From an uncultured Planctomycetia bacterium (GTDB lineage: Bacteria; Omnitrophota; Gorgyraeia; 1-14-0-20-64-10): a stretch of DNA of 64,000 bases. A program made the position numbers and the translations under genes. The notes beneath the pieces are model-generated. The model saw only the letters and a program-made list of their open reading frames with translations, ran no database searches and was not told the DNA's origin. Shown here one piece after another: positions 37,094-54,788 of the stretch (position 1 is its first letter; the number at the start of each line of letters is the position of its first letter). The stretch is from assembly GCA_964373805.1 (NCBI GenBank), contig CAYJWF010000003.1, positions 23,001 to 87,000 of the forward strand, given 5' to 3'.

Positions 37094-39220
37094 CTATGAG
37101 GCCGCGCCGACTGAGGCGTGGCCGGGGGTTGAACCCTTTGGCATAAGCGGGTGGCCCCTACGAGGGAAAAGGTCAGAGGTTATTAGAAAATCGTATAACG
37201 TGCTACAGGGGTTAACCTCCGAGGAATAATAGAGACGTTCCAGCAGGTCTGGCCAGCGGTTCTTTCGTTCAAGGACCCCTCCCTCTTCCTGGATGCATTT
37301 CGATAGGGCCCAGCGCAGGCTTTCTGCATCCTGGAAAAAGAACACACCCTCTTCGATGTCCCACATGGGCGACTGATCGTAATGCCTAGCGGTGTCGTAG
37401 ACAATCGGCATACTGCCGAAGGCGATGGCTTCTATTCCCACCGAGGTCGTGCCCGTAATGGTGGCTCGCGATGCGCTCCATAGATTGGAAGACCACGACT
37501 CGACCATGCCGTAGCGATGGAATCCTTGCCTTGCTGCAATCGTCGCTGCCTCTCGACGGACCGGACAGAGGGGATGATCCTTGATGAGAAAAAACGTTTT
37601 CGGAAACGCCTTTCCGGCCTCGAAGGCAAGCCTCAGGATGGCCACTGAATCGGTGCGAAGAAAGGTTGTTGCGATCAACACCGGCAGGCATCCCTTTGGG
37701 AGGTCGATGTCCCACTGTTTTAGACCATCTTCGAACTGGTGGCCTTGCCTGGCCAGGTGCCGGGGATGTCCTAGGCGAACCGGTCCAGTGAGTACCACTC
37801 GCTTCGGGGCCAGCCGTTCCTGCAGAATGTTCAGCGTCGTCTTCCCATTGACAGCAATCAAATCAGGCAGTGGTGCTAATCGCGGATTCCGGTCACCACC
37901 ATTTTGACGAATCTGGCCCCGGGGAAATCGGTAACCCAGGTGATTCTGACCGGTCAGACCCGTCTGCAGGCCAATGACCGGAACGCTTGGCTGAGCAGAT
38001 TTTAACCCGGCCGTGAAGGCTCTTTCCGTTGGTTGATATTCGAACGGGATGGTCATACAGCCGATGTTTCCCAACCGCGCGGCTAACCGACGGATGGCCT
38101 CTGCCGCACATAAATTAAAGGGGATCTCGGGACTCTGAATATCGTGCTCTATTTCCCTCATCAGTAAAGGGCCGACTTCAATGCCCCTGAAGTGAGCCGT
38201 CCGTTTTCGGCCTCTACGCCAGGATTGATAGGACCGTCTGCAGCTGTTGCCAAAACAGAAGCGCAACAGCTCCAGAAAGGTTAATTGGGATTCGAGCAGA
38301 ATGATCCTGGACTTGGTCATCTGACGACGCATCTGCCTTGACAGGAAAAGGATTTTGCCGGCATGGGTCATGGTCGTCGCCGCAAATACGGGGGGGTATC
38401 CATGGTCTTCCAGAAACTTCGGCCACTCACCAAACGATCGGTTGTGCCACTGTCCTGGCTGACGGAATTCCCACATCGATGGAAACAGCGTACAAAACAA
38501 GGCCCAGGACCGGGCAGGCGGTGGGACCCCACCGGCAGAGCCCGGTGCACCTTGCTCTGGCCCGGTTGGGGCGACATCCCGAGCAACCACCTTGCCTATG
38601 CCGGTGAGTCGCAGAACAACCCATCGTAAACATTGTTGCAGGCCAAACCACCATCGCCTGAGCCATGGGAACTGGCTTAAGGATTGGCGCAGTGTTCGCC
38701 GTCGTTTAGCCCGAATCACCCCGTCCAGCCGCGCGTTATAACGCTGGGCAAGCTGACGAATCGCTGGCACAACTGCAAGATCATCGGTTAAGAGCGTTAC
38801 CCGCTTAGGTCGATGCTCAGCCAATACTTGATCGATGATCTGTAACCGGTAAAGAAGATGAATCAGGGGGGTACGCATCGGACTCATCTCAGAGATCGGC
38901 ATGAGCCACCAAACGCCAATTTGACCCCGCCAGGTCCAAAGATCCCAAAGGCCATTTTCCCTGACGAATCGGTCGAGAAAGGGAGGGTACTCTTGGCGTA
39001 TTCGCCGGCGTGCTTCTTGTGCATAAGGAGTGGGTGAGATCCATCGCGCTCTGTCTCCAATCTCTTGAGGGATACCGTCACCCGCTTCCAAGGACGAAAA
39101 TTCCAACCATTGGACGGTGCATCCGTCTCTTTGCAGGGCCTGGAGGGTACGAAGGCGACTTCGTTTCGACTGCGCTTGCTCTGTCAAGCCGATAAAGAGA
39201 ATTTCTTCCCCGATTTTCAT
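37094..39220 (-). CDS. hypothetical protein, paralog A of a three-member family (putative transferase)
   Basis: 708 aa, unrecognised family. Shares an N-terminal EILFIG motif and a central IPFEYQPTE...VPVIGLQTGLTGQNH block with 46633..48471 and 61727..63808. Confidence 0.5.
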   Translation of the reverse strand: MKIGEEILFIGLTEQAQSKRSRLRTLQALQRDGCTVQWLEFSSLEAGDGIPQEIGDRARWISPTPYAQEARRRIRQEYPPFLDRFVRENGLWDLWTWRGQIGVWWLMPISEMSPMRTPLIHLLYRLQIIDQVLAEHRPKRVTLLTDDLAVVPAIRQLAQRYNARLDGVIRAKRRRTLRQSLSQFPWLRRWWFGLQQCLRWVVLRLTGIGKVVARDVAPTGPEQGAPGSAGGVPPPARSWALFCTLFPSMWEFRQPGQWHNRSFGEWPKFLEDHGYPPVFAATTMTHAGKILFLSRQMRRQMTKSRIILLESQLTFLELLRFCFGNSCRRSYQSWRRGRKRTAHFRGIEVGPLLMREIEHDIQSPEIPFNLCAAEAIRRLAARLGNIGCMTIPFEYQPTERAFTAGLKSAQPSVPVIGLQTGLTGQNHLGYRFPRGQIRQNGGDRNPRLAPLPDLIAVNGKTTLNILQERLAPKRVVLTGPVRLGHPRHLARQGHQFEDGLKQWDIDLPKGCLPVLIATTFLRTDSVAILRLAFEAGKAFPKTFFLIKDHPLCPVRREAATIAARQGFHRYGMVESWSSNLWSASRATITGTTSVGIEAIAFGSMPIVYDTARHYDQSPMWDIEEGVFFFQDAESLRWALSKCIQEEGGVLERKNRWPDLLERLYYSSEVNPCSTLYDFLITSDLFPRRGHPLMPKGSTPGHASVGAAS

Positions 39221-40149
39221 TGTGGGTCTGACGAGGGAGGGGATGTCTGGGGGGAAAGGCTGTTCATCTGCTCATGTATTTCCTCCAGACAATCCAGCAA
39301 TCCTTGCCCCATATCCAGGTAATAGTGGCTGACCAGCTTCTTCGCGATTTGAGGCCGAAAGGTATACGGAGTGACGGTATAGTGCGGGCTTTTGCCTTCC
39401 CTCTGTTGCGCAGGGTCGATGGGGCGAAACTCCACAAGGACATCTGACCCGACGATCTCTCGGATCATCTCCAGCAGATCTCGAACACGCAACGGATGAT
39501 GACCGGTTAAAACCACGTGTTCGTTCCGAAACGCAGGTTCAAGAACTTGCACGCTGGCACGAGATACATCGGCAACGTGGACGTACTCTCGCAGCTCATC
39601 GCCGGTACCCTGGAGGACCATGCGTCGGTCTCTTAAGGCCTGGATTAAATACTGTCGCACCCCATTGTCACTATCGGCTCGTCTTCCATAGATAGATCCG
39701 TAACGCAGAATCGTGTAATCGAGGCCAAACCATCGTTGGTACTCTTCCACGTAGAGTTCACAAGCTTGCTTGCTTGCCCGATAAAATCCGCCCGAATGTC
39801 CAGAGACATAGATCGTGCTGGCAAAGATGTATCTTTTCAGAGACGCGCGACGCGCCTCTTCCAAAAGAATGGCATTGCCCAAGATATTGTTCCGGACCGT
39901 CTCAACGGGATGTTCCTGTGCCTGATCGAGATCGGCAAGGCCTGCAAAATTGTAGGCGACCTCTTGTTTCTCCAGGATTCGCCGGACGGCTGCAGCATCC
40001 AGGATATCCCCCTGGACAAACCTTTGTCCCTGCCTCAAATAGGGAGAAGGCCTTAGGTCATAGATCGTCACTTCATGGCCTGCCTCCAAGAGTGCATCCG
40101 CTACATGACTTCCGAGGAAGCCGGACCCGCCAAACACAACCGCTTTCAT
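39217..40149 (-). CDS. NAD-dependent epimerase/dehydratase (SDR)
   Basis: VFGGSGFLGSHV and YRASK motifs. Start at internal ATG (MKAVVFGG) at 40149 in ATGA overlap. Track ORF extends to 40302. Confidence 0.7.
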   Translation of the reverse strand: MKAVVFGGSGFLGSHVADALLEAGHEVTIYDLRPSPYLRQGQRFVQGDILDAAAVRRILEKQEVAYNFAGLADLDQAQEHPVETVRNNILGNAILLEEARRASLKRYIFASTIYVSGHSGGFYRASKQACELYVEEYQRWFGLDYTILRYGSIYGRRADSDNGVRQYLIQALRDRRMVLQGTGDELREYVHVADVSRASVQVLEPAFRNEHVVLTGHHPLRVRDLLEMIREIVGSDVLVEFRPIDPAQQREGKSPHYTVTPYTFRPQIAKKLVSHYYLDMGQGLLDCLEEIHEQMNSLSPQTSPPSSDPQ

Positions 40150-40937
40150 TGTTCTGCTGCCTTCACGACTTGTCCCGTGTTCTCCAAGGCTGGTTTGACT
40201 CCGTGGGCTTTTAACCAGAACTCCACCAATGGAATCTGCCATTCGTAGTCCACATCGAGGCCCCCCCATTGCCTGAGCGGCCAAATTTTCTGTCCCATCC
40301 ATCTTTGCGGGAGCAACCCGCTCTTTAGATTTTCGAGGCAGCGTGGCCTGACGACAGACACTCCCATGTCTGCAAAATAGACATCCCCTTGCGAATCCCT
40401 GTCACAGCTTAAAGTGGTCGGATCTCCCCAGGCCTCAAACGGTACGAATGGATGGAGCAAACCGTCGGAGCCTAGTCGGCGTGCTCGGGGTGGACTCCAC
40501 ATGTTATAGACCGACACCGATACCGCAGAATCAATCTCTGGGCGTTTTCTAAGGACATCCACTCCTTCATCAATTAATGCCGAGGTAACCGTCGGGGCGT
40601 TGCAGAACAATAACACCATCAGCTCCAGATGCTTCCCCTCAGCCATCAGCTCATTACGGATGATCTGGTAACCGTGGACAAAGGCCTCTTCGCCTAGAGC
40701 TTCTTGAGTAGCCAGATGAGGTGGTCGATCGAGGATTCGTGCGCCGTATTGAATCCCAATCGCCTTGATGAGGTCAGAATCCGTGGACACAAAAACGCGA
40801 TCTACGCTCCGGGCCCCTTGTGATGCCAGCAGAGGATAAACCATAAGGGGGCGGCCAAGGATGGGAGTGAGATTCTTTCCCGGAAACCCCCTGCTTCCTT
40901 CCCGGCCTATAAGGAGCGCACAGATCATAGCTCTCAT
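40146..40937 (-). CDS. acylneuraminate (nonulosonic acid) cytidylyltransferase family protein (CTP_transf_3)
   Basis: ICALLIGREGSRGFPGKNLTPILGRPLMVYPL matches the NeuA/PseF/KdsB N-terminal glycine-rich nucleotide-binding motif. ATGA overlap at 40937. Confidence 0.7.
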   Translation of the reverse strand: MRAMICALLIGREGSRGFPGKNLTPILGRPLMVYPLLASQGARSVDRVFVSTDSDLIKAIGIQYGARILDRPPHLATQEALGEEAFVHGYQIIRNELMAEGKHLELMVLLFCNAPTVTSALIDEGVDVLRKRPEIDSAVSVSVYNMWSPPRARRLGSDGLLHPFVPFEAWGDPTTLSCDRDSQGDVYFADMGVSVVRPRCLENLKSGLLPQRWMGQKIWPLRQWGGLDVDYEWQIPLVEFWLKAHGVKPALENTGQVVKAAEQ

Positions 40938-42955
40938 CCTTCTTCGGAAAGCGACCGCGCTAACCCGATCGAGAAAGCCTCCATCAAATCGGGAGGGCCA
41001 AGCGTGACTCGGATGCAGTTGGCCAAACAAGGGGAATCAAAAGGCCCTTTAACCAAATAGCCGTGATAACGGAGTCTTTCTACTAATTGCGATGGGTCAC
41101 AGCGGCCTGCAACGCGCAGCAGCATGAAGTTCGTGTGGGTGGGCAGAGGAATCAACCCTAAGGCCTGGGCCCGTTTCGCCAGCCATTGTCCACCTGCTTC
41201 GACTTGGGCGACATAGTCGTCCATGATCTGAGGCTGCTTGAGGAGTTGACCTAGGCACATAATGGCTATGCTGTTGATATCATGGACTGACCGTACCTTA
41301 GAAAGATGGCTCATGACTTCAGGGTGTCCAGCAGAAAAGCCGATCCGTAGGCCTGCCAGTCCGGCTGCCTTGGAGAAAGACCGGATCGCCACCAGATGAG
41401 GGAATCGTTTAATCCAGGGAAGTATCGTGGTACGAGAGAATGGATAGTAGGCTTCATCAACCACCAGCAAGGCTCCTACCGAGGCTGTCCGATCAGCTAA
41501 CTGAAGCAGAACATCTTCCCCTAAGAGAGTTGCCGTTGGCTGGTTCGGGTTAGCGATCATGACCAAACGGACTCCTTCTGACACGCTACGGACCAATTGC
41601 TCGCCGTCCAGTACAAGGCTTTCGTTAAAGGAGATCTTCCGAGCCTTTGCATGAAACATCTGTGCATAAACCTCGTACATCGCGTAACTGGGATCCAGCA
41701 TCACCACGGTATCCCCTGGCTGGACGTAGGCTTGATAAAGGGCCTTAATGGCGGCATCGGATCCTGCCGTTAAGAGAAGCTGCTCTTCTGGGATGCCAAG
41801 CCATGCGCTCAACTGTTGGTAAAGCCCATGGGTGACGGGGTAATGGGTAAGCAACCGACTATGAAAGGATTGGCGCAGGGCGGTCATGAACTGTTCGGGT
41901 AACGGCTGCTGTCGCTCATTTCGATTCAGCCGGATGAGATTCTCCTGGGCACTTGGCTCCGGAGTCCGGTACAGCCCACTTAATCCAGGTACCGGCAGTG
42001 GGAGGGTCTTGGGACTCTCCACCGGAACGGGACCGGTTTCTGAGAACTTTGTGGCAACAGAAAAGATGGTATCGCAAAGCCAACGGGTTTTCAGACATCG
42101 GGCATATTCTTGATCGAGTTTCCAGTCGAATAGGTGGCTGTACTTGCCTTTCCCTCCCGGCTGTCCGGTGAGGAGCCAATGGATGTGATTGGAAAGATCG
42201 TAACGTTGCTCGGGAAACATTTTAAAACGAAAACCGGCCTGTTCCAAAACCCTGGCTAGCGTCCTGTGCGAGTAGTTGAAATAATGGGCCTTCTGCCAAT
42301 AGAACCGGTCGAAACTTTCCAGTTGGTAGAATCGCACTAAGGCGTCGTCTACGTTGGGCACTTCCATCGCCAACAGTCCCCCAGGCTGAAGCATATCGCG
42401 GAATTTGGCCAAACTTCTAACCGGTCTCTGCAGATGCTCGATCACATAGTAGGCCAGGATGAGATCAAAGCGTTCTTTCGCCACCTCATAAAGATTCGAA
42501 ACCGTCCGGATTCCCCGCCGATTGGCGTAATCCGCATAAAGCTTACCAGGTTCCACGCCAGTAATCGATGCCACGTAAGGCTCGACGGCAGCCAGCAGGA
42601 AACCGGTTGAACTTCCAATCTCAAGGACTCGCATGCTTGAACGCAGGTACGGCTGCAAGTGAACCAAACGGCGTTTTGCCTCCGCTTGGTTTTTCTTGAA
42701 GTGCTCTTCGGGCTCTGTCTCGCCAGGTCCTCCCCTCTCCTTCATGTAGTGCGCAAATTCAGCGCTGTAGAACTGCTTCTCCTCCTCTTCCATCATGGTC
42801 GGATGAATGAAGACAATCTCACAGGCGCTGCATCGACAGACAAAGGACCCGGGCATTCCCCAGACGGTATCGGCGATGCGATAGCGTGTTCCCCCATCTT
42901 GACAGAGCGAACATGGGATATCGACCTTGGGAGCCGTGTTGCTCCAGTTGGGCAT
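40934..42955 (-). CDS. bifunctional fusion: Zn-ribbon SAM-dependent methyltransferase (N) + class I/II PLP-dependent aminotransferase (C)
   Basis: N-terminus has CSLCQDGG...CRCSACEI then LEIGSSTGFLLAA motif I and LILAYYVIEHL. C-terminal ~370 aa has VVDEAYYPF and the SFSKAAGLAGLRIGF PLP-Lys motif, as in histidinol-phosphate/aspartate aminotransferase-like enzymes. Confidence 0.7.
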   Translation of the reverse strand: MPNWSNTAPKVDIPCSLCQDGGTRYRIADTVWGMPGSFVCRCSACEIVFIHPTMMEEEEKQFYSAEFAHYMKERGGPGETEPEEHFKKNQAEAKRRLVHLQPYLRSSMRVLEIGSSTGFLLAAVEPYVASITGVEPGKLYADYANRRGIRTVSNLYEVAKERFDLILAYYVIEHLQRPVRSLAKFRDMLQPGGLLAMEVPNVDDALVRFYQLESFDRFYWQKAHYFNYSHRTLARVLEQAGFRFKMFPEQRYDLSNHIHWLLTGQPGGKGKYSHLFDWKLDQEYARCLKTRWLCDTIFSVATKFSETGPVPVESPKTLPLPVPGLSGLYRTPEPSAQENLIRLNRNERQQPLPEQFMTALRQSFHSRLLTHYPVTHGLYQQLSAWLGIPEEQLLLTAGSDAAIKALYQAYVQPGDTVVMLDPSYAMYEVYAQMFHAKARKISFNESLVLDGEQLVRSVSEGVRLVMIANPNQPTATLLGEDVLLQLADRTASVGALLVVDEAYYPFSRTTILPWIKRFPHLVAIRSFSKAAGLAGLRIGFSAGHPEVMSHLSKVRSVHDINSIAIMCLGQLLKQPQIMDDYVAQVEAGGQWLAKRAQALGLIPLPTHTNFMLLRVAGRCDPSQLVERLRYHGYLVKGPFDSPCLANCIRVTLGPPDLMEAFSIGLARSLSEEG

Positions 42956-42957
42956 CG

Positions 42958-44046
42958 TTAGGAACCCTTCCTCGCCGGCTCAAGCCGCGAGATAGGCGCC
43001 TGAGAGAGGAGCTCCTGAGGATTGATCGGCCTTTTTTGACTAGTACAGAGACGAGCCGCCTCCAGGACAGCCAAGGTTCGAAGATTGTCCCAGGCGGGAG
43101 AGATGAGGGGCTCTGCTTGGGTTATCGCCGCATAAAAATTTCGCAATAGGGCCAGGTCCGAAAGATCGTATTGACCATTCCGGTCTCGGATCCTGACCTC
43201 TGAGGTCAAATCCACCGGCTTCTCATCGCCAGACCGCGAGAGATGAAGCGGCGGCTCACTGTATTCGCTTTCGTTAAACAAGGTTCCCAGCTCTCCCTCC
43301 ACCTGGAGGCTCTCCAGAGGTAGATGGCCATTTCGAGAAGAGAGTGTGGCCACGTAGCTTATCCCTACCCCTGCCTCTGTCTCCATCCAGAGCTGCATGC
43401 TGGAAGGGTATCGATAGCGACTCCAGATTGGCCGAAACGCGTGACCCTCCACCTGAATAATCTCCTGACCGAGGATGTATCGAAACAGGTCGAAGTGATG
43501 GATGGACATAGAAAACAGCAAGGGATCCGGTTCTTCAAACAGGTATCCTGGTAGATGGGACAGCTCTCGGTTGCGCAGATACCGAAAGAAGATGTGGGAG
43601 ACCTGACCGATGGCCTCCTCCGCAATCGCTTTTCGCAGCGCCTGGCCTACCGATTTTACTCGCCAATTCTGAACCACACCCAACACCCGGTGGCTTCGTT
43701 CAGCCAGTTGAGCCAAGCGAGCGCCATCCGAGAGATTTGTCACGAACGGCTTCTCCACCAGAACGTGGCAATTGGCCCGCAACCCTGCTTCTACGGTCGC
43801 GCCATGAGCATCGTTGGTGTTGCAAACGATCAATACATCCGGCTGGGTCTTTCTTAATAGATCATCCAGGTCACCGTATCTCTCTTGAGAGGAGATCAGT
43901 TCCATGGCCTGAGCGCGATCCAGCTCTTTCGGGTTGATATCCTGCACGCCTACCAAAATGAAACTGTCCGTTTGGCGTAGATGCCGCTGCCAGGCCGTTC
44001 GACTTCGGTTTCCCGAACCGGAAATGGCGACTCGCAACTGGGTCAT
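42958..44046 (-). CDS. Gfo/Idh/MocA family NAD(P)-dependent oxidoreductase
   Basis: N-terminal Rossmann (VAISGSGN), conserved EKP motif (VLVEKPF), C-terminal alpha/beta domain. Typical of sugar-nucleotide 3-dehydrogenases. Confidence 0.7.
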   Translation of the reverse strand: MTQLRVAISGSGNRSRTAWQRHLRQTDSFILVGVQDINPKELDRAQAMELISSQERYGDLDDLLRKTQPDVLIVCNTNDAHGATVEAGLRANCHVLVEKPFVTNLSDGARLAQLAERSHRVLGVVQNWRVKSVGQALRKAIAEEAIGQVSHIFFRYLRNRELSHLPGYLFEEPDPLLFSMSIHHFDLFRYILGQEIIQVEGHAFRPIWSRYRYPSSMQLWMETEAGVGISYVATLSSRNGHLPLESLQVEGELGTLFNESEYSEPPLHLSRSGDEKPVDLTSEVRIRDRNGQYDLSDLALLRNFYAAITQAEPLISPAWDNLRTLAVLEAARLCTSQKRPINPQELLSQAPISRLEPARKGS

Positions 44047-44984
44047 AAAGCAAACTTCTGGTGTGTGCGGGCCCAGTTCACCATTCGGCAGATGCCATCC
44101 CGGAGAGGGACCCGCGGTTCCCAGCCCAACCCCTTCCGGATAGCTCGGATATCGGCGAAAATAACCTCCTGGTCTCCAGGCGTCGCCTCTATTTGTCTGA
44201 TCGGATAATCTTCATGGAGTCCCATGGCCATGAGCAGTTCGGCAATTAAGGCGCGAACCGAAGTCCGACAGCCGCCGGCCACGTTCAAGACGCCTTTTGC
44301 CGGTCCTTCAAGCGCCATCTCCCAGGCGGTGACGACATCCTCTACATAAACGAAATCACGTATTCGATCCAAGGAACCCTTCACGATCAAGGGTTCCTGT
44401 TTGAGCAGATAGGCCAGATAGATGCTGACCATCCCCTGCTTCTGATCTTCTAGGTTTTGGCCAGGGCCGTAGACGCTGAACATGCGCAAGGAACATGTTC
44501 GCAATCTTTGGGCGGTGACGACTCGCAGGATCTGTTCAGCGCTGTGTTTCGATGCGCCGTAGTAAGATATCGGTCTTGGGTGGGTCACCTCTGAAACAGG
44601 TTGATCGCCCACGAGCCCGTAAACGGCCATAGAGCTGGCGTGCAGGAACGTGGGGATACCCTGTTCGATGGACCAAAGGGCCAAAGAAAGTGTCGAGCGA
44701 GCATTGGCATCGAAGTCATCCAAGGGATCTTCAAAGGATTTTTCGCCAGAGGATTGGCCCGCCAGGTGACAGACAGCCTTGTAAGGCCCACGGGGTAGTT
44801 CATGGGTGGAATCGGGCCTTCTCAGATCAACCTTAAGAAACTCTGCTTCCGGTGGAACGTTCTCTTTCGAGCCCGTGGAAAGATTATCTACGATGGTGAC
44901 GGAGTAGCCTTTCAAGATCAGTCGCCGTGCCAGATGGGATCCAATAAACCCCGCCCCTCCCGTGACCAAAATACGTCCTCGCAT
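44043..44984 (-). CDS. NAD-dependent epimerase/dehydratase (SDR)
   Basis: VTGGAGFIGSHL and YGASK motifs. Start at internal ATG (MRGRILVTGG). Track ORF extends to 45056. Confidence 0.7.
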   Translation of the reverse strand: MRGRILVTGGAGFIGSHLARRLILKGYSVTIVDNLSTGSKENVPPEAEFLKVDLRRPDSTHELPRGPYKAVCHLAGQSSGEKSFEDPLDDFDANARSTLSLALWSIEQGIPTFLHASSMAVYGLVGDQPVSEVTHPRPISYYGASKHSAEQILRVVTAQRLRTCSLRMFSVYGPGQNLEDQKQGMVSIYLAYLLKQEPLIVKGSLDRIRDFVYVEDVVTAWEMALEGPAKGVLNVAGGCRTSVRALIAELLMAMGLHEDYPIRQIEATPGDQEVIFADIRAIRKGLGWEPRVPLRDGICRMVNWARTHQKFAL

Positions 44985-44997
44985 TATGGGGTTCCTT

Positions 44998-45873
44998 TCA
45001 CTCCATGTCCTTGATCGACAAGAGGTCCCCGACGGTTTTCCCTTTGGGGTACTCAACGTTATCCAGATGAACCTGAGCCAGGATATCGTTAGGCAAATCC
45101 ATTAGGGTATCCGTCTTGCCCGAAGGCGTATCTCCCTTGCCGAGATAAACCACACAGTAACAGACCGACTTTACGGGCAAAATGGCAGATTCAGGTGGCT
45201 TCCCATAGTAACCGATAGCGACCAGGGTGCGAGGTCTTGGTTCCAACCCGTTATGGAGGAATTCAAATATGGCCTGAGGGTTGCTCAAGACGTAAGGGAC
45301 GACGGTCTGGCCTTCATGGATCGGATCCGCTGTTGGAAACCGCTTCTTCAACACCATGTGCGATGTCGATAGTTCGTATTGATAGGGAACCGATACAAGA
45401 CGAGGCAGGTCAAGGACACAACCCTTGGCGGCTACACGGTATAGTTCCTGGACGATCCTTTGATAATTCGGGTTATGGTTCAGCACCCCTGTGCACACCG
45501 CCAGATCAAAGCTTCCATCCGGGAAGGGTAAATGGGAGCCATCGTTAACTTCAAACTGTACCGACGGATAAAAGGACCTGGCCTTCCGGATCATTTCGGG
45601 TGAGACATCAAGCCCCACATAGCGAATCCTCCGATTTAGAGTTTGGAGAAGGCTTAGGAATCCTCCTGCTGCGCAACCGAAATCCAGGATGCTGGCGCAG
45701 TTTTTAAGGGCCGGCATGAGGAGTGCGCGCTCTGAGTCGTAAAGGTCACCGACGTTTCGGCGCTCCTTCGCATAGTATTCGACGATATTCGATTGAGACC
45801 AGGCGGTGAAATTGTTCTCAGCCTGTGAAACGGGATTCATAGGCTTGTCATCCATTCCGGTGAAATAAAACAT
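44998..45873 (-). CDS. class I SAM-dependent methyltransferase
   Basis: LDFGCAAGGFL motif I, acidic GLDVS, LAVCTGVLNH. Strong AGGGAG Shine-Dalgarno 6 nt upstream of the start at 45873. Confidence 0.7.
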   Translation of the reverse strand: MFYFTGMDDKPMNPVSQAENNFTAWSQSNIVEYYAKERRNVGDLYDSERALLMPALKNCASILDFGCAAGGFLSLLQTLNRRIRYVGLDVSPEMIRKARSFYPSVQFEVNDGSHLPFPDGSFDLAVCTGVLNHNPNYQRIVQELYRVAAKGCVLDLPRLVSVPYQYELSTSHMVLKKRFPTADPIHEGQTVVPYVLSNPQAIFEFLHNGLEPRPRTLVAIGYYGKPPESAILPVKSVCYCVVYLGKGDTPSGKTDTLMDLPNDILAQVHLDNVEYPKGKTVGDLLSIKDME

Positions 45874-46675
45874 TGGAAGCTCCCTTAAATTGCGGATGAA
45901 GATGTCCGTACCGGTAAGGGTAGCAGGCTGCTTCTTTAAAACCCCGATCCGACAAGAAGGTTCGAACCAAAGAAGATTGAGGATGGGCCTCGTCCAATTC
46001 TACTAAAAGGCTCTTTACGCTCCGGAGGCTCCCTTCGGCGCCCTGAAGGATAATCAACTCGGTTCCATCCACATCCAGCTTTAGGTGAGTTGGGGCGGGC
46101 AGCTTAAATTGCTCAACGAGGGTATCCAGGTCAAACGTTAATACAGCCGCGCTCGCGGCAGGATGAAAATCCCTGCCCCGGTAATCCTTCGCCTCGCCCA
46201 AGGCATGCAGGGCGCCTCCCGGCGTCAGATTCGCGTAATGAAAAGTGTCCAAACCTGTGGTGTTGGCCAAGGCAACGGGCAATGGCGTTACCCATCGTTC
46301 GAATCCGTTTAACGTCAGATTCGAGAGTAAACGGGCAAAATTGAATGCACTCGGTTCAATCGCCACAACCCGGACGAGTTCCTTCCAGTAAGAAGCGGCC
46401 ACCAGCGTGTAGGTTCCCACGTTTGCGCCGATGTCGTAGAAGACATCCCCCTTTTCCATCTCGCGTTCAATCCAGGCGACCATCTCCGGTTCCTTGCGAC
46501 AGGCATGTAACCGAGTGTGGTATTCCACTTCCGAGGAAACCCCTAATCGGATGGCGTGTCGATCGTAATCGAGCAGCCCGATGACTTGTCCCGGAAGGCC
46601 CAGCCGAAAATGAAGCTTGGCAGAAACACGTCTTAGATACCTGGAGATCGCTTCCACCATCGGTTTCCTAGACAC
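45848..46675 (-). CDS. FkbM family methyltransferase
   Basis: FYDIGANVGTYT motif diagnostic of FkbM-type O-methyltransferases. Confidence 0.7.
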   Translation of the reverse strand: MSRKPMVEAISRYLRRVSAKLHFRLGLPGQVIGLLDYDRHAIRLGVSSEVEYHTRLHACRKEPEMVAWIEREMEKGDVFYDIGANVGTYTLVAASYWKELVRVVAIEPSAFNFARLLSNLTLNGFERWVTPLPVALANTTGLDTFHYANLTPGGALHALGEAKDYRGRDFHPAASAAVLTFDLDTLVEQFKLPAPTHLKLDVDGTELIILQGAEGSLRSVKSLLVELDEAHPQSSLVRTFLSDRGFKEAACYPYRYGHLHPQFKGASNVLFHRNG

Positions 46676-48471: not shown

Positions 48472-50503
48472 CCACCCTCCTCCCGTACGTCATTCTCCTC
48501 GTCAACCGCTGGATTCCTCCCAGCCTTTGGATCAGTTTGACCATCCCGGAGAGTTGGGTTCCATAACGAGTAAGGGCATCCTGTCTTAAGAGGACTTGCT
48601 CCTCACTGAACGTAAAGCTTAGCCAAATTGGGTCAGCCCGATGGTACGATCCCAGCGACGCCGAGGGATCATCGGTCAGCCAGGCGGGCAGATCAAAGCT
48701 GAAGCTTTCGCTCAGTGCCTCTGGGTGCGCAGTCAGTTGAAAAGCTCCCTCCATGCGACACAGGGTAAAACGCTTTAACTCCTCGAGCTCTTGTGGTTGG
48801 ATATCCCGCAGCCTTTCCTCTAAGAATTTTTCCGAGATGGCAAAAACCGTGTCCAGCCACTCTCGTGCAGCCTGGGATAGCATCCACGTTTTGTGCTTGT
48901 AAAGAACATTGCCGCCCGCCTCACCGGTGAGAAGCTTTTGGTAATGCTCAGGGCTGGAGTAAAAAGCGATGAGCTCCTCCTCGGAATCCCAAAGCTCGTT
49001 GAGGGTTTCAGAGGTAAAGCTATCAAAAATGGTCTTAACGGCTGCAGGCAGATGGGTGGTTTCACGATAAATGGCTTCGATCCAATCCGAGATTAGCAAT
49101 CGATGGGAGCGAATATATTTCTTAAGCGCTTCACAGAGAGTGCCGTTGTAGCAAAGGTCAATCACAAAGAGGAGTTTTCGGGATTCCAGGTAATCTTCTA
49201 GTGAAAAGGCGTTGGTCGCTACGGCGACTTCCTCGGTGTCAAATACGCAACGTCCATTGTAAGTTCCAAAATCAAGTGGAACCACCCGGTATTTTCGGAT
49301 AAAGCCATATTCCCGGATATAGGCATCGTTATCTTTGTAAGGCGTTCCATGCAACATTTGCAGCGTGTGTACGACGATGGTACTCACCTGAGAATCCAGA
49401 AGGTTTCGGATGCCTCCCAGATGCGAGATCCAGGTCTCGCCAGGCAAAGGGACAATCAGTTCAGCCACCTGCGGCCGCCCCTGGGAATTGAGCTCCTCGG
49501 AGATCGCCCGATAATGATCCAGTCGGATGTTGGACCTTTCGATCTTCTTTAACACGGTACTGTCCATCGATTGAACCGCCATGTTGATGATCAGGGTATC
49601 TTTTAGAATTCTCGTCACATCGATAACACGCTGCTTGCTATTTTTTCCGGTCCAGGCGGTTACCGAAAGAGGCCACCCATACCTTTCCTGAAGCCGATGC
49701 ATAAGTTCAGCCGTTTTGTAGTCTCGGGGAATCATGCCGAAATTGTTATCCGCGAGTGTCAGGTGTCCGACGCCCGCCCGTGAAGCCCGTTGAGCGACGT
49801 ATTGCCATTCCTCTTGCACGTATTGGTCGCTGAAAAAATCCACCCGATTGAAATACGAATTTCCCGCGTTACAGAAATTACAGGTAAAGGGACAGCCTCG
49901 CGCCGTCTCAAGCAAAGGCGCCAACCGGCCATCGAAGAATCTATCCAGAAGGCCCGTTGCGTATGGAGAGGGAATGGAGTCAAGATCTTTGATTCTTTCG
50001 ATGGATGGGCCGGAAAAGAATTCGCCGCTCTCCTTCTGGATGAATTGGCACCCTGCGATCGGCTTGGCCAGTACCTCTGGGTATTCCAAGCAAGAGAGGC
50101 GCTTTTCAATAACATTGGAGAAAGCGATTTCAGCCTCATAAAACGTATGACAATCCAATTGCGGCCTTTTGAGAAGAAATTCTCTTTGCTTCGATGGATC
50201 GAATGGGTAATTGGTTCCTCCAAAAACGGTTAGGATTTTTGGGTCAATCGATTTCACGAGTTCTAAGAAATAATAGGAAAGGTTGCTGTTCCACGTATAA
50301 TTACTGCAGCCCAAAACATGAGGGGCCCTCCGATCGATGGCCTCTCTTAAGTCCTCAGGATATTTAAAGAAAGACACCTCGATCTCGTTTCCAAATTTTT
50401 TGATCGCATAGGAACCGATCAGACCGATATTCAGAGGAAAGGCTTCTGTCGCAATTCCAACCCCCATGTGGGTCAAATCGGCAAGATAAATTCTTAGCGG
50501 CAT
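48431..50503 (-). CDS. B12-binding domain-containing radical SAM protein (class B radical SAM)
   Basis: N-terminal cobalamin-binding-like Rossmann region. CPFTCNFCN = CxxxCxxC radical SAM cluster motif at ~aa 200. Large C-terminal domain, 690 aa. Confidence 0.7.
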   Translation of the reverse strand: MPLRIYLADLTHMGVGIATEAFPLNIGLIGSYAIKKFGNEIEVSFFKYPEDLREAIDRRAPHVLGCSNYTWNSNLSYYFLELVKSIDPKILTVFGGTNYPFDPSKQREFLLKRPQLDCHTFYEAEIAFSNVIEKRLSCLEYPEVLAKPIAGCQFIQKESGEFFSGPSIERIKDLDSIPSPYATGLLDRFFDGRLAPLLETARGCPFTCNFCNAGNSYFNRVDFFSDQYVQEEWQYVAQRASRAGVGHLTLADNNFGMIPRDYKTAELMHRLQERYGWPLSVTAWTGKNSKQRVIDVTRILKDTLIINMAVQSMDSTVLKKIERSNIRLDHYRAISEELNSQGRPQVAELIVPLPGETWISHLGGIRNLLDSQVSTIVVHTLQMLHGTPYKDNDAYIREYGFIRKYRVVPLDFGTYNGRCVFDTEEVAVATNAFSLEDYLESRKLLFVIDLCYNGTLCEALKKYIRSHRLLISDWIEAIYRETTHLPAAVKTIFDSFTSETLNELWDSEEELIAFYSSPEHYQKLLTGEAGGNVLYKHKTWMLSQAAREWLDTVFAISEKFLEERLRDIQPQELEELKRFTLCRMEGAFQLTAHPEALSESFSFDLPAWLTDDPSASLGSYHRADPIWLSFTFSEEQVLLRQDALTRYGTQLSGMVKLIQRLGGIQRLTRRMTYGRRVDVSGNNRAEPILG

Positions 50504-51462
50504 GATTCCTTCTCGAGGCAGACAAAGTGGTAACCGCCCAGCGCCTTACTTCTTCCATCCAATTCAACCAGTTCTTTGAGAAAGGGTCGAATCGTATCAA
50601 TCCAATCCGATTTGATGGACCGGCGATTGGCTTCGCTCATCTTTTCTACCATTCGAATCAGGACGGGAAATAGGGGGCGCAGGCCGATGTCCCATACCCT
50701 CAAGGTCAAAGGAGAAAGATAGGAATGGTGCGACACCATCTTAAACCTGAGGCTATGGGAGAGCCTTCCCAATTCAGATTGAGAAATGGTCCAGCGGATG
50801 GATTCGCTTCTTCCTCTGTTTAACAAATGGAGAATGGGTGAGCCCGACTCTCTCCAGTGGTAACTCATGCAGTATTCCTTGAGCTTGGGATCCGGTAAAC
50901 ACAGGAAGGCCCGGCCTCCCCACCGGAGGATCCGCCACACCTCCTTGAGCGATGCCTCAGCCGAATTGAGCCAGTACAACATATTGGAAAAAATCGTCTG
51001 AAAGGATTCCTCCTGGAAAGGAAGCCCATGGTTGGCGTTTGAGGCAGCCACCCAACGATAGAATCCCAACGCTTCTGCCTGGCGTAATAAATTCGGTTTG
51101 CCGTCCAAGGCCCCATCGAATGAGGCCTCCGGTTTTCTTACGATCCAAGCCGGTTCGAAGGGAGCTCGAAGGCAGTCATACACGTCCCCATGGGTCCAAA
51201 AGCCCTTTACATCGACGTTTCGATACCAATCAAACTCCGGTGAGAACGATCCTCCCGCTGTGATGAAACTGAAAATTCCGTTCCCACAACCGAGGTCAAG
51301 CGATGGAGAATCGAACCTCACCGATGCAATCACAGAGGAAGCAATGGCATCCCATAACGCCGATTCGGGTCGAAGCCAGTGTACATTCAGATGCTCCTCA
51401 AGAAAACAGAATGGCCCCGCTTGAGATCCCCGTAAAGCTGGACTAGAGATTTGCTGAGGCAT
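50494..51462 (-). CDS. class I SAM-dependent methyltransferase
   Basis: LDLGCGNGIF motif I. Start assigned to internal ATG (MPQQISSP). The first 54 aa of track ORF 50494..51624 look antisense-derived. Confidence 0.6.
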   Translation of the reverse strand: MPQQISSPALRGSQAGPFCFLEEHLNVHWLRPESALWDAIASSVIASVRFDSPSLDLGCGNGIFSFITAGGSFSPEFDWYRNVDVKGFWTHGDVYDCLRAPFEPAWIVRKPEASFDGALDGKPNLLRQAEALGFYRWVAASNANHGLPFQEESFQTIFSNMLYWLNSAEASLKEVWRILRWGGRAFLCLPDPKLKEYCMSYHWRESGSPILHLLNRGRSESIRWTISQSELGRLSHSLRFKMVSHHSYLSPLTLRVWDIGLRPLFPVLIRMVEKMSEANRRSIKSDWIDTIRPFLKELVELDGRSKALGGYHFVCLEKESCR

Positions 51463-52078
51463 AGGCCTGCCTGCGTTGGAGCACCTTCTCTGCCAGCCAG
51501 AAGTCGAATTCATCGTCAATCTCGAGGTTTTGTTCTCGATCAGTGAACATTCGCTCGATTCGTGTTCCATACCGATCCCCTTGTTGGATGAGACTCGCTC
51601 TAATGACGTACACGTTTCCATCATCGCAAAAGAGGCCGGGCAACTCTTGGCGCCTCAACGTATTCTTCCCATACTCAACAGATTTACAGAGAAAGCCGGT
51701 CGCAAGGGAGTCTGCCTTTGTTTCGAGAAACCTCTCGATGCAACGATCGATGAGACCCGGTTCCCGAATAGGGGAAGTCGCCTGAAGGAGGACCACTATC
51801 TCTGCTGGGATCTGGGTGAGTACCTGTTGGAGAACGCTTAAGGTTGTCGCTTCGTCGCTGGCTAGGTGGTGGGGTCGGTGAATGAACTCACCTGTCCATC
51901 GCCGTGTCACCTGAGCAATCTCAGGGTCTTCCGTAGAAACGACATGCCGATCGAGAAGTCGGGAGGCCTTACCGGCTTCGATCGTCCAGGCGATGAGCGG
52001 CTTACCGGCCAAGATCCGGATATTCTTCCGAGGGACCCCTTTGCTTCCTCCCCGTGCGGGGGTTATTCCCAAGATCAT
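51443..52078 (-). CDS. acylneuraminate/pseudaminate cytidylyltransferase (CMP-nonulosonic acid synthetase family)
   Basis: MILGITPARGGSKGVPRKNIRILAGKPLIAWTIE is the canonical NeuA/PseF/LegF N-terminal motif. 211 aa. Confidence 0.75.
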   Translation of the reverse strand: MILGITPARGGSKGVPRKNIRILAGKPLIAWTIEAGKASRLLDRHVVSTEDPEIAQVTRRWTGEFIHRPHHLASDEATTLSVLQQVLTQIPAEIVVLLQATSPIREPGLIDRCIERFLETKADSLATGFLCKSVEYGKNTLRRQELPGLFCDDGNVYVIRASLIQQGDRYGTRIERMFTDREQNLEIDDEFDFWLAEKVLQRRQAYASANL

Positions 52079-53768: not shown

Positions 53769-54788
53769 TCATTCCAACTTTTCCCAGGTAATGACCTCGT
53801 CCTTCCGGATGGCTTGCTTGGCGAGTCGGCCGATAACGGTCCGATAAAGCGAAGGGGCTACGCCCGTTCCAGGGCGCTTCAAAATAATCTGGTCCTCAGA
53901 GATCGCTTCCCCTGCCTGAATGTCACTACGAGCGATGGCGCTCTTCCGAGTCTGCAGCCGCATATTCTCCTCAGTGGGGGCTGGACGTTTCACCTCATCT
54001 CCTAGGGCTTGTTCAAGCTCCCGAACGGCTAAGACCAACGCCTTCATTTCCGGTGGATCTGCAGAGAAAAAAGCGTCGGGTGAATCCAGGTGCTTATCGA
54101 GAGTAAAATGGCGCTCAATCACCGATGCTCCTAAAGCGACAGCACCCAGCGGAACACTCAGGGTCATCGTGTGATCTGAAAAGCCAATCGGCGCCTTGTA
54201 CGCCTTTTGCAGGGCACGAATGGCCTTGAGATTAACGAGGTGAAGATCCTTGACCGGATAGTTGGAAATGCAGTGGAGAATGGCCACCTGGTTGTTTCCC
54301 GTGTCGAGGATAGCTCGCACAGCCTCATCGACCTCCGCTAACGTAGCCATCCCCGTTGAGAGAATAATCGTTTTACCCTTCTGGGCGACATAGCGGATGA
54401 ACGGGAGATTGGTCAGATCGTCCGAACCGACCTTGTAAGCCGGCACCTCAAGTCGTTCAAGGAGGTCCACATCATCAAAATAGCTGGGGGTTGAAAAGAC
54501 CATGATCCCACGGTTTCGAGCGTGAGCAAAAAGTTCACCGTGCGCTTGTTCAGAAAGCTCATATCTCTGGAATTCTTCAAATTGATTCGTGCCACCGGCC
54601 TCTGCTGGAAAATCGACCATTCGAGAAGTAACCGTTTCTGCCCTAAACGTCTGGAACTTCACAGCATCTACGCCGCATTCCATAGCAGCGTCGATAGTGG
54701 CCTTGGCCTCTTCCAGTGTATTAAAGTTATATCCGATCTCAGCGATAATGAAGACCGGTTGGCCTGTGCCGATGAAACGATCCGCCAT
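53769..54788 (-). CDS. N-acetylneuraminate/pseudaminate/legionaminate synthase family (NeuB/PseI/LegI), full length with C-terminal SAF domain
   Basis: PVFIIAEIGYNFNT (IAEIGxNHxG-like), AVKFQTF, KVGSDDLTN, ILSTGMATL, GFSDHT, IERHFTLD, then a C-terminal SAF/antifreeze-like region. Start at internal ATG (MADRFIGTG) at 54788. Confidence 0.8.
   Translation of the reverse strand: MADRFIGTGQPVFIIAEIGYNFNTLEEAKATIDAAMECGVDAVKFQTFRAETVTSRMVDFPAEAGGTNQFEEFQRYELSEQAHGELFAHARNRGIMVFSTPSYFDDVDLLERLEVPAYKVGSDDLTNLPFIRYVAQKGKTIILSTGMATLAEVDEAVRAILDTGNNQVAILHCISNYPVKDLHLVNLKAIRALQKAYKAPIGFSDHTMTLSVPLGAVALGASVIERHFTLDKHLDSPDAFFSADPPEMKALVLAVRELEQALGDEVKRPAPTEENMRLQTRKSAIARSDIQAGEAISEDQIILKRPGTGVAPSLYRTVIGRLAKQAIRKDEVITWEKLE

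Follow-up and report, generated by a model that had tools for sequence, protein, structure and literature searches.

The window, which is the whole stretch of 64,000 nucleotides analysed here, contains an open reading frame for a 673-aa protein in which a methyltransferase (MT) is joined to an aminotransferase (AT). The frame is placed as the earlier note had described, with a cytidylyltransferase gene downstream and a Gfo/Idh/MocA oxidoreductase gene upstream (Table 1). The true start of the cytidylyltransferase gene is most likely the ATG at 40928, which gives a protein of 260 aa, and not a TTG that extends it to 294 aa and overlaps the fusion. The PDB matches of the Gfo/Idh/MocA protein included WlbA (3q2i, 3q2k) and WbpB (3o9z), with E values from 4e-11 to 1e-6. 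The 708-aa protein matched TIGR04326 at 81.9 bits, which is below the cutoff of 250, was 30% identical to the protein unk626 of locus L004, and had no PDB or Pfam match. The window also holds a NulO pathway, with NeuB, DegT, SDR and WbqC genes.

Table 1. Positions of the fusion gene, its modules and motifs, and neighbouring genes in the window.
Feature	Position	Strand	Basis or remark
Whole fusion ORF, 673 aa	40934..42955	-	ATG start; stop codon 40934-40936, counted in the end coordinate
N-terminal module, residues 1-305 (about): Zn-ribbon and class I SAM methyltransferase, MT_23 family	42041..42955	-	PF13489
Zn-ribbon knuckles, C15-x2-C18 ... C42-x2-C45	42821..42913	-	76-member family alignment
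SAM-binding motif I, VLEIGSSTG, residues 110-118	42602..42628	-	Family conservation
Linker S305-T317 (SETGPVPVESPKT), 13 residues, Pro-rich	42005..42043	-	Alignment across the junction
C-terminal module, residues 318-673: HisC/CobD-type class I/II PLP aminotransferase	40934..42004	-	PF00155
SFSKA motif, PLP-binding Lys529 (41369-41371)	41366..41380	-	Aligns with the Schiff-base lysine motif of HisC
Gfo/Idh/MocA oxidoreductase, immediately upstream	42958..44046	-	Stop 2 nt before the fusion ATG
SDR1, GalE-like extended SDR, first gene of the SDR1-Gfo-MT_23 sub-module	44043..44984	-	58% identity to L010 SDR1
Methyltransf_11 protein, 291 aa	44998..45873	-	Closest window relative of the post-AT MT-A, 30-33% identity
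CTP_transf_3 cytidylyltransferase, 260 aa, NeuA/PseF-like, downstream of the fusion	40146..40928	-	Profile match
SDR2, extended SDR, 310 aa, conserved cassette member	39217..40149	-	Homologs in other loci
TIGR04326-like surface-carbohydrate protein, 708 aa, candidate transferase for the product	37094..39220	-	TIGR04326
NeuB	53769-54824		
DegT gene, separate ORF from the fusion	56610-57638		

The MT_23-AT fusion in the window is genuine, end-to-end and rare. The 673-aa frame was unbroken across the junction, where the other two reading frames were interrupted by stop codons, and re-translation of the join showed neither a frameshift nor a stop. A Pfam scan, for which the earlier note had asked, found two domains in the single polypeptide that it had claimed: Methyltransf_23 (PF13489) at residues 90-243 (71.9 bits against a cutoff of 27, E 6.8e-20) and Aminotran_1_2 (PF00155) at residues 339-658 (132.5 bits against a cutoff of 19.7, E 2.8e-38). 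The family-invariant residues were retained in both halves alike. It is very unlikely that there are really two genes, joined by a sequencing or assembly error that erased a stop or shifted the frame. Exactly such an error produced P0002 of L001, the only other apparent fusion, which was rejected as a long-read frameshift artefact: indels are present, and the genuine C-terminus of the MT is encoded in a different frame, ending in a TGA that overlaps the GTG start of the AT (GTGA overlap). However, the join in the window is in frame with homologous sequence on both sides, an independent Logan assembly of run ERR4904392 (L003) was the same as the window at 15,502 of 15,503 bases with the same ORF intact, and the identical protein, P0001, was found on four contigs from NCBI and Logan. 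A search for the same architecture among 1.84 billion representatives gave no second true MT_23-AT fusion, in keeping with the suggestion that such a fusion had not been described.

MT_23 and AT are encoded by two genes, side by side and in a conserved order, in nine distinct loci that span several phyla. In L008, L009, L010/11, L012/13, L014 and L021, an MT_23 gene (about 305 aa) is directly followed by an AT gene (about 370 aa, but only 227 aa in L012/13, where it is truncated) with a gap of 0-35 nt, and in L014, a Blastocatellia MAG, the two genes are in the same frame with a single stop codon between them. The junction alignment showed that the MT part of the fusion ends in CDTIFSVATKF, which is the end point of the standalone homologs; SETGPVPVESPKT follows, and after it comes LPLPVPGLSGLYR, a match to the N-terminal sequence of the standalone ATs. 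Where the genes are separate, the place of the linker is taken by the MT stop codon, the spacer between the genes and the very start of the AT protein. Structure prediction gave two domains joined by a disordered linker (pLDDT <50 at residues 305-316 and 328-349), with no defined inter-domain interface (pTM 0.54). These data showed that the MT_23 stop and the short spacer behind it were lost, and that the two genes were thereby fused through a flexible linker of 13 residues. It is a read-through of two neighbouring operon genes and no special invention, and it brings no chemistry beyond that of the unfused operon.

The MT half has 353 homologs, more than 100 of them standalone proteins of about 305 aa at 50-71% identity, and its model is Rossmann-type (pLDDT 92.9). 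Among the 76 members aligned, C15 was present in 75, with a gap in the one other row; C42 and C45 were invariant; and the second Zn-ribbon ligand was a Cys or a His at position 18/19. In motif I, G114 was invariant, and E112, T117 and G118 were at least 90% conserved. The Pfam match, the conserved Cys motif and the SAM motif thus bear out the Cys4 ribbon and the methyltransferase that had been assigned to this half. The protein at 24933-25922, which had been called its standalone paralog, has the same architecture and an aligned CxxC...CxxC pattern, but it is a distant relative (27% identity over 242 aa, E 1e-16) and not a close paralog.

The best full-length Foldseek matches of MT_23 were the keto-sugar C-3 methyltransferases TcaB9, KijD1 and MtmC, with alignments of about 320 columns, Zn domain included, to 5t6b, 4e2w and 4rv9 (E about 1e-14). 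In these enzymes too, a Zn domain with four ligands lies at the N-terminus, ahead of a class I SAM fold; they share the FDxxY motif with MT_23 and act on a keto sugar nucleotide (a dTDP-4-keto-sugar), often in pathways that also have an aminotransferase. However, the identity was only 16-20% and the TM-score 0.54, and the catalytic Glu-His dyad of TcaB9 (Y222/E224/H225 in the numbering of the PDB mutant titles) is not retained in MT_23, where it aligns to Gln221-Lys222. In the profile alignment, FDTIYHEHLSY of MtmC stood against FDRFYWQKAHY of the window protein, with the Tyr retained and the invariant H224 of MT_23 two residues beyond Q221-K222. TcaB9, KijD1 and MtmC are also longer (about 405-416 aa), and their sugar-binding C-terminal domain of about 100 residues is absent from MT_23; the Pfam scan found no PF08484-type domain in the fusion, and the MT module ends at about residue 304. 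By sequence profile, generic methyltransferases without an assigned function (2p7h, 3cc8, 1vlm) scored nearly equal to the TcaB9 group or better.

In the AT half, the SFSKA PLP-lysine motif was found as previously noted, and K529, D500, N471, Y424 and R537 were nearly invariant in 33 AT-clade sequences. The best NCBIfam match was TIGR01141 (HisC) at 230.6 bits, followed in our comparison by TIGR01140 (CobD threonine-phosphate decarboxylase) at 147.6 bits, and the closest solved structures were HisC enzymes (Foldseek, TM about 0.8). The AT resembles the HisC/CobD enzymes in its fold, its PLP lysine, its Asp/Asn/Tyr PLP ligands and an Arg equivalent to R335 of E. coli HisC. It differs from them in belonging to a separate clade, marked by an N-terminal L-x-R-N-E-R motif and by additional conserved basic residues, and in its glycan-cluster context, which replaces his or cob operons. 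In spite of these top matches, a housekeeping HisC or CobD-type threonine/serine-phosphate decarboxylase is hardly credible, since both scores were under the curated cutoffs (276.55 and 290.55) and the AT clade (50-68% identity) was always within surface-glycan clusters beside methyltransferases and a cytidylyltransferase, with no his or cob genes near it in the loci examined. The AT had also been likened to WbpE, which belongs to DegT/DnrJ/EryC1 (PF01041); the Pfam scan found no such match in the fusion, the genuine DegT gene of the window lies elsewhere, and this comparison has to be given up. The known substrates of the HisC family are otherwise small phosphorylated compounds or 2-oxo acids, and we know of no HisC-type AT that acts on nucleotide sugars, for which DegT-type enzymes are used.

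The two genes are part of a cassette found in Acidobacteriota, Verrucomicrobiota, Thermoleophilia, Dehalococcoidia, Syntrophia, Omnitrophota and Gemmatimonadota, and no description of it was found in the literature searched. Its usual order is GalE-like SDR, Gfo/Idh/MocA, Zn-ribbon MT_23, HisC-type AT, one or more methyltransferases, CTP_transf_3, SDR and a protein of about 600-700 aa. CTP_transf_3 is the most conserved member (67-81% identity across phyla). Gfo homologs 48-74% identical to that of the window were found in 12 other loci, besides L003 from the window's own organism, and Gfo was directly upstream of MT_23 in every MT_23 locus whose genes were read (for example L008 and L022); a Gfo homolog was likewise detected in the remaining MT_23 loci. 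The methyltransferases that follow the AT (MT-A and MT-B) differ from MT_23, and MT-A had no detectable similarity to solved sugar N-methyltransferases. Three other fusions, AT-MT-A (P0016, in the order opposite to that of the window and with a different methyltransferase), Gfo/Idh/MocA-AT (P0185) and SDR-MT_23 (P0221), tie these genes, together with the window fusion, into a functionally linked cassette. MT_23 was also found with Gfo/Idh/MocA without AT (L022, with the order Gfo-MT_23-GT2-GT4, and L019-L026), and AT without MT_23 (L004, L005 and L015), so the fusion bridges two sub-modules. Only the window, L001, L007 and L020 had NeuB at a distance of less than 10 kb from the cassette; many loci carry Pgl, Ldh_2 and HAD instead, which suggests that the acid being activated may be something other than a nonulosonic acid.

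ElaB (a CTP-transferase), ElaA (Gfo/Idh/MocA, C8 oxidation of CMP-Leg5,7Ac2) and ElaC (an SDR) carry out the C8 epimerisation of CMP-legionaminic acid in Acinetobacter baumannii KL49 and Vibrio vulnificus (PMC13656337). The window has a co-located Ela-like gene set (39217-45056, with NeuB), with CTP_transf_3, Gfo/Idh/MocA and SDRs in one cassette inside a NulO glycan cluster. The proposed logic is also alike, in that a hydroxyl of a CMP-sugar would become a ketone on which a second enzyme acts. However, the ketone of the window would be transaminated and methylated and not reduced from the opposite face, and the SDRs differ in kind, those of the window being extended (GalE-like) and ElaC being classical and ketoacyl-reductase-like. 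A second precedent is EpaA/EpaB, where EpaA is a CTP_transf_3 fused to an aldo/keto reductase (PMC12053666), which shows that cassette enzymes of such kinds do become fused.

With WbpB/WbpE (WlbA/WlbC), which oxidise UDP-GlcNAcA at C3 and transaminate it, the locus shares a Gfo/Idh/MocA dehydrogenase beside a PLP aminotransferase. Unlike the HisC/CobD-type AT of the window (PF00155), WbpE/WlbC is of the DegT/DnrJ/EryC1 type, and that pathway has no methyltransferase and a UDP-linked substrate, whereas the window genes are associated with a CMP-transferase. Of the WbpB/WbpE-like pair proposed in the earlier note, the link to the adjacent Gfo/Idh/MocA stands, and its position directly upstream of MT_23 and the Gfo-AT fusion P0185 make an oxidise-then-transaminate logic reasonable; the aminotransferase is not of the WbpE type. 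The TylB/TylM1 and DesV/DesVI pairs of deoxyamino-sugar pathways (an AT and an N,N-dimethyltransferase) recall the arrangement in which the AT gene comes right before those for the small class I methyltransferases MT-A and MT-B. However, TylB/DesV-type ATs are DegT-type, and it is the upstream MT_23 that is fused to the AT of the window, and not MT-A, which is the one fused to AT in P0016.

With somewhat better than even confidence, we read the locus as a fusion of adjacent genes whose product methylates and transaminates a keto intermediate on a nucleotide-activated, probably CMP-ulosonic, sugar. The Gfo/Idh/MocA enzyme would oxidise a hydroxyl of the activated sugar to a ketone, and the sugar would most likely be a CMP-ulosonic/nonulosonic acid from the neighbouring NeuA-like cytidylyltransferase, as with ElaB and ElaA on CMP-legionaminic acid. 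The MT domain would methylate the keto intermediate; our leading guess is C-methylation beside the carbonyl, with O-methylation as the alternative. The AT domain would then turn the ketone into an amine, presumably with glutamate as the donor, separate MT-A-type methyltransferases may N-methylate this amine, and the TIGR04326-like protein may place the completed sugar on a surface glycan. With both enzymes on one chain, an unstable keto intermediate would stay close by, and the two activities would be present in a fixed 1:1 ratio. The order that had been supposed, in which the fused MT methylates after the amination, is unlikely: MT_23 precedes AT and occurs with Gfo/Idh/MocA in AT-less loci, which makes the methylation independent of the amine, and MT_23 probably does not N-methylate the newly formed amine. 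Nothing in the gene content supported the suggested substrate UDP-3-keto-GlcNAc(A), the conserved partners being a NeuA/PseF-like CMP-transferase and extended SDRs.

A more specific version, to which we give a low probability, is that a HisC-family AT was recruited to aminate a nucleotide-activated ulosonic acid and, joined in this lineage to a TcaB9-like MT, works with the adjacent Gfo/Idh/MocA to build a C-methyl-branched or otherwise methylated amino ulosonic acid, a class of sugar that to our knowledge has not yet been described. Under it, the extended cassette may form the ulosonic acid without a NeuB/KdsA-type aldolase, by a route from a sugar phosphate to a lactone (SDR), an aldonate (Pgl) and a 2-keto acid (Ldh_2), followed by dephosphorylation (HAD) and CMP activation.

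HisC/CobD chemistry uses phospho-substrates, and it is conceivable, if unlikely, that the AT converts a phosphorylated hydroxy-ketone (for example DHAP to serinol phosphate) or a ketose-1-phosphate to an amino-alcohol phosphate, which would then be methylated and CTP-activated as a phospho-linked glycan decoration. Serinol phosphate is part of C. jejuni capsule biosynthesis, where Campylobacter Cj1437 is reported to make it from dihydroxyacetone phosphate. Two substrate-binding Arg equivalents and clade-specific Arg/Lys residues are conserved in the AT, L002 has a GlpD-like glycerol-3-phosphate dehydrogenase, several loci have HAD phosphatases, and one large cassette protein has a weak TagF-like Glyphos_transf match. 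However, the cytidylyltransferase belongs with the CMP-ulosonate enzymes (NeuA/KdsB/PseF family) and not with the TagD, IspD or LicC families that serve for alcohol phosphates, conserved along with it are two extended SDRs of the nucleotide-sugar type and a WlbA/WbpB-like Gfo/Idh/MocA, and DHAP requires no dedicated dehydrogenase.

The separable sub-modules also mean that MT_23 and AT may not act on the same molecule. One module (SDR1-Gfo-MT_23) could make a methylated neutral sugar and the other (AT-MT-A-CTP-SDR2) an amino sugar acid, the fusion being an accident that is tolerated and channels nothing. The loci with one module only agree with this, as do the fusion point exactly at the module boundary, the restriction of the fusion to one lineage and the predicted lack of an inter-domain interface. 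We nevertheless consider it rather improbable: the order of the modules is kept across several phyla with the short or overlapping MT_23-AT gaps described above, which suggests co-translation and one pathway, and P0185 joins an enzyme of the type found in the first module to AT.

It is improbable that the Gfo/Idh/MocA enzyme is an inositol dehydrogenase whose product the AT turns into an inosamine for methylation, as in aminocyclitol/rhizopine biosynthesis. Its best NCBIfam match was IolG, at 139.7 bits for the L010 type and 57.4 for the window type; AP_endonuc_2 (IolE/IolI-like TIM barrel) genes adjoin the cassette in L001 and L012; L006 has an inositol monophosphatase gene; and where Gfo is missing, a radical-SAM/SPASM gene directly upstream of AT recalls BtrN. 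However, the IolG scores were all far under the cutoff, known inosose aminotransferases are DegT-type, and the strictly conserved NeuA-like cytidylyltransferase and extended SDRs would be left unexplained.

The fusion itself is a modest finding from one lineage, and its value is as a pointer to an uncharacterised, widespread sugar-tailoring operon, for which the single-polypeptide form would be a handy reagent for reconstituting both steps together. If a HisC-type AT truly aminates a nucleotide sugar acid, amino-sugar enzymology would extend beyond the DegT family, and many uncultured bacteria of soils and sediments would be predicted to carry a new methylated amino sugar acid on their surfaces.

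In the Pfam scan, one 673-aa ORF matched Methyltransf_23 over residues 90-243 (E 6.8e-20) and Aminotran_1_2 over residues 339-658 (E 2.8e-38), which bears out the single two-domain polypeptide described in the earlier note. Re-translation of the junction showed no in-frame stop, and both remaining frames contained stops. An independent Logan assembly of ERR4904392, from the window's own organism, differed from the window at a single base (15,502 of 15,503 identical) with the ORF intact, and an identical fusion protein was present on four contigs (NCBI and Logan). Because of the open junction frame, the Logan agreement, and the identical protein on four contigs, a sequencing artefact is unlikely. 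The Cys4 N-terminus (C15-x2-C18 ... C42-x2-C45), the SFSKA PLP-lysine motif (lysine K529), and the adjoining Gfo/Idh/MocA and CTP_transf_3 cytidylyltransferase genes were also found as the earlier note had read them. The CTP_transf_3 gene has an alternative TTG start overlapping the fusion; the ATG was judged most likely. The observation of a methyltransferase-aminotransferase (MT-AT) fusion was confirmed, and its earlier interpretation was supported in part.

Features of the window discussed in the text
Feature	Position	Strand	Remarks
Large protein, 708 aa	37094-39220		
SDR2	39217-40149		cassette member after CTP_transf_3
CTP_transf_3 (cytidylyltransferase-like)	40146-40928		most likely ATG 40928, 5 nt past fusion stop
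Fusion ORF	40934-42955	minus	673 aa, ATG start
Gfo/Idh/MocA	42958-44046		ends 2 nt before fusion ATG
SDR1, GalE-like	44043-45056		first gene of conserved order
FkbM-type methyltransferase and one further methyltransferase	45848-46675, 50494-51624		
Large protein, 612 aa	46633-48471		
B12-binding radical SAM enzyme, 690 aa	48431-50503		candidate C-methylase
Two further cytidylyltransferase-like genes	51443-52078, 60337-61737		one of the three in the window fused to GT2 glycosyltransferase
NeuB-like gene, full length	53769-54824		SAF domain
DegT gene	56610-57638		genuine, separate from fusion
NeuB-like gene, short	59575-60318		247 aa, adjoins 2-hydroxyacid dehydrogenase 58560-59573
Large protein, 693 aa	61727-63808		
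602-aa ORF	28153-29961		adjoins subtilase ORF
Subtilase, 607 aa	29958-31781		fervidolysin-type prodomain and LamG domains, borders glycan cluster

The AT half had close homologs at 50-68% identity, almost all of them standalone proteins of about 372 aa, and the homologs of the MT half (353 matches, 50-71% identity) were standalone proteins of about 305 aa. Five standalone MT_23 genes lay in one order (GalE-like SDR, Gfo/Idh/MocA, MT_23, AT, one or two MTs, CTP_transf_3) with an MT_23-to-AT spacer of 14-35 nt, and the window gene order was exactly the same, with MT_23 and AT fused. In a Blastocatellia MAG (L014), the MT (4783-5706) and AT (5707-6858) genes were in the same frame with a stop codon as the sole separator; judged from its sequence, this pair is one mutation short of the fused architecture. 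The MT part of the fusion stopped at ...CDTIFSVATKF, the end point of standalone MTs, and was followed by SETGPVPVESPKT and then by LPLPVPGLSGLYR..., which matched the standalone AT N-terminus. The combined MT and AT alignment (A2, MAFFT) included bridging sequences, with reduced MT rows. In the full-length model, pTM was 0.54 and pLDDT fell below 50 at residues 305-316 and 328-349; the disordered linker and this pTM indicate two tethered domains that are independent of each other. The fusion is genuine, a simple variant in which a conserved gene pair has lost the stop codon between its members.

The same architecture was searched for with HMMER across all 1.84 billion representatives. No second protein matched both halves, so the MT_23-AT fusion looks confined to the window's lineage, in agreement with the rarity supposed earlier. 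P0002 (542 aa, L001:9589-11629), a public database protein from a divergent genome, was rejected as a second fusion, being an annotation artefact of long-read indels. On this 1.3-Mb long-read contig the MT gene was split over three frames (tblastn and three-frame translation); its true C-terminus was ...WLCDTVFAVARNPA*, and its TGA overlapped the GTG start of the AT gene (GTGA). The neighbouring Gfo/Idh/MocA and Ldh_2 genes of the contig were fragmented too.

Other fusions joined other cassette members. In P0016 (L002:10001-11968), the same AT clade was fused to MT-A, the methyltransferase conserved after AT in the cassette, in the order AT then MT, opposite to the window, and the MT subtype was Methyltransf_25/11, unlike the window's fused MT. 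The representative search also gave P0185 (704 aa), a Gfo/Idh/MocA-AT fusion. P0221 (594 aa) was a GalE-like SDR-MT_23 fusion, the SDR part of which was 38% identical to the window's SDR1. P0016, P0185, and P0221 are independent fusions and link the cassette genes functionally. In the representative search, P0193 was an AT fused with a 'sugar-transfer associated ATP-grasp' domain.

We analyzed the MT half by alignment and structure prediction. Across 76 MT_23 family members, C42 and C45 of the Zn-ribbon were invariant, C15 was present in 75 (the remaining row was a gap), and the second ligand was Cys or His at position 18 or 19. The MT half alone was predicted with a pLDDT of 92.9 and a pTM of 0.90. 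Its best full-length Foldseek matches were KijD1, TcaB9, and MtmC (E ~1e-14, TM 0.54), which are dTDP-4-keto-sugar C-3 methyltransferases; the alignments spanned ~320 columns and therefore included the Zn domain. Small uncharacterised MTs nearly matched that Foldseek score and ranked higher by sequence profile. Profile alignment showed that the FDxxY motif was common to the TcaB9 group and the MT half. However, the Glu-His that follows it in the TcaB9-group C-methyltransferases was Q221-K222 in the MT half, which also lacked their C-terminal domain of ~100 residues. The MT_23 family therefore resembles the TcaB9 group without belonging to it.

The gene at 24933-25922, called a standalone paralog in the earlier note, did share the Zn-ribbon-plus-MT_23 architecture, but proved a distant relative with only 27% identity (E 1e-16). 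As read from translations, it was flanked by two heptosyltransferase-like genes (~330-363 aa) and followed by a 419-aa O-antigen-ligase-like membrane protein. This region (window 23822-28190) looks like a core-oligosaccharide block carrying its own methyltransferase.

The best curated match of the AT half was HisC TIGR01141 (230.6 bits, below the cutoff of 276.55), and its score against CobD was 147.6 bits (below the cutoff of 290.55). The closest solved proteins were histidinol-phosphate aminotransferases (E 5e-36), and the predicted structure superposed on HisC and CobD with a target TM of about 0.8. K529 was nearly invariant in the AT clade, as were the PLP ligands D500, N471, Y424, and R537. 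The AT half is thus of HisC/CobD type and not the WbpE-like sugar aminotransferase proposed earlier, and the window has a genuine DegT gene elsewhere. HisC-type enzymes normally use phospho-ketones or 2-oxo acids; this counts against a CMP-ulosonate substrate and leaves a serinol-phosphate-like route via the AT a small but appreciable probability. In the plasmid collection, the AT matched only rhizobial hisC (~30% identity), and the cassette cytidylyltransferase had zero matches. For HisC-type aminotransferases in nonulosonic acid clusters, the literature search yielded no relevant work.

A tblastn matrix of all loci showed two sub-modules. Several Actinomycetota loci had SDR1-Gfo-MT_23 with neither AT nor cytidylyltransferase (the order in L022 on inspection was Gfo, MT_23, GT2, GT4), and AT-MT-A-CTP_transf_3-SDR2 occurred without MT_23 in L004, L005, and L015; the fusion was located at the boundary between them. 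MT_23 is therefore unlikely to be the N-methyltransferase of an AT-installed amine, which it does not need, and the earlier proposal that the fused MT methylates the AT product was not upheld. For N-methylation, the MTs after AT are better candidates than MT_23. A case for MT-A as an N-methyltransferase via likeness to TylM1/DesVI was rejected, since such PDB matches were absent; neither the MT-A of L010 nor the window's MT_11 showed similarity to solved sugar N-methyltransferases in the PDB. That the MT and AT domains act on different molecules is also improbable, slightly more so than the serinol-phosphate-like route, and a cyclitol route for the cassette is very improbable.

The position upstream of MT_23 was taken in different loci by one or the other of two unrelated types of Gfo/Idh/MocA, about 25% identical (42958-44046 in the window and L010:8878-9978). 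The window type was common to L001, L008, L014, L016, L018, L019, and L022-L026, and the L010 type was found in L002, L009-L013, and L021. The cassettes of L004, L005, and L015 were without Gfo/Idh/MocA and carried a radical-SAM/SPASM gene (~382 aa) directly upstream of AT (L004:8836-9984, L005:8838-9986). BtrN is a radical-SAM oxygen-independent dehydrogenase that supplies a ketone, and this gene may, by analogy, encode a BtrN-like enzyme. The window's radical-SAM/SPASM gene (55565-56704) was only 23% identical to these genes.

The cytidylyltransferase was the most conserved cassette member (67-81% identity across phyla) and was NeuA/PseF/KdsB-like (PseF 61-81 bits, below cutoff; NeuA structures E 1.5e-13). 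PDB matches of the Gfo/Idh/MocA partner included WlbA and WbpB, and both SDR1 and SDR2 were extended SDRs of the nucleotide-sugar type. The link to the adjacent oxidoreductase held, as Gfo/Idh/MocA precedes MT_23 in the conserved order; the keto-sugar substrate suggested with it was not supported. The cassette shares its trio of CTP-transferase, Gfo/Idh/MocA, and SDR with the Ela system, in which ElaB makes CMP-Leg5,7Ac2, ElaA is proposed to oxidise the C8-OH, and ElaC reduces the 8-keto group (PMC13656337). EpaA/EpaB, in which EpaA is a fusion protein, is a pair similar to the Ela trio (PMC12053666). The gene associations are observed, and by analogy with the Ela and Epa systems we infer every chemical step of an oxidation-methylation-transamination scheme. 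Gfo/Idh/MocA would oxidise a nucleotide-activated sugar, probably CMP-ulosonic, the MT domain would methylate the oxidised intermediate, and the AT domain would transaminate the ketone; separate MTs might N-methylate the new amine, and the 708-aa TIGR04326-like protein would transfer the product. Literature searches on the cassette and on TIGR04326/LIC12162 found nothing relevant.

The window contained nonulosonic acid pathway genes (PseB/LegB-like SDR, DegT, WbqC, NeuB, a PseG-like gene, and PIG-L). Among the loci compared, only the window, L001, L007, and L020 had a NeuB gene within 10 kb of the cassette; because this adds only three other loci, the CMP-nonulosonate reading cannot be generalised. 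In many loci, a protein above the 6-phosphogluconolactonase cutoff (TIGR01198, 207 vs 124 bits), Ldh_2, and HAD lay beside the cytidylyltransferase. This extended cassette, seen in L010:14762-19047 as CTP_transf_3, the 6-phosphogluconolactonase-type protein, an extended SDR that weakly matched Azf-type G6P-dehydrogenase, an Ldh_2 2-hydroxyacid dehydrogenase, and HAD, was also present in L001, L004, L005, L011, and L015; its 6-phosphogluconolactonase-type, Ldh_2, and HAD genes were absent from the window. These three proteins could supply another 2-keto acid, a point against the CMP-ulosonate reading, and the extended cassette might convert a sugar phosphate into a CMP-activated 2-keto sugar acid by an aldolase-independent route.

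The three cytidylyltransferase-like and two NeuB-like genes suggest that the window's glycan cluster makes at least two CMP-activated acids. The three large proteins, putative transferases, contained no Pfam domains and had no detectable mutual similarity. The 708-aa protein had no sequence matches in the PDB, matched TIGR04326 weakly, and shared 30% identity with the ~626-aa protein closing the L004 cassette. Because the cluster holds a candidate C-methylase and two methyltransferases, the final glycan is probably heavily methylated. The interest of the fusion is mainly as a flag for an uncharacterised, widely distributed sugar-tailoring cassette.
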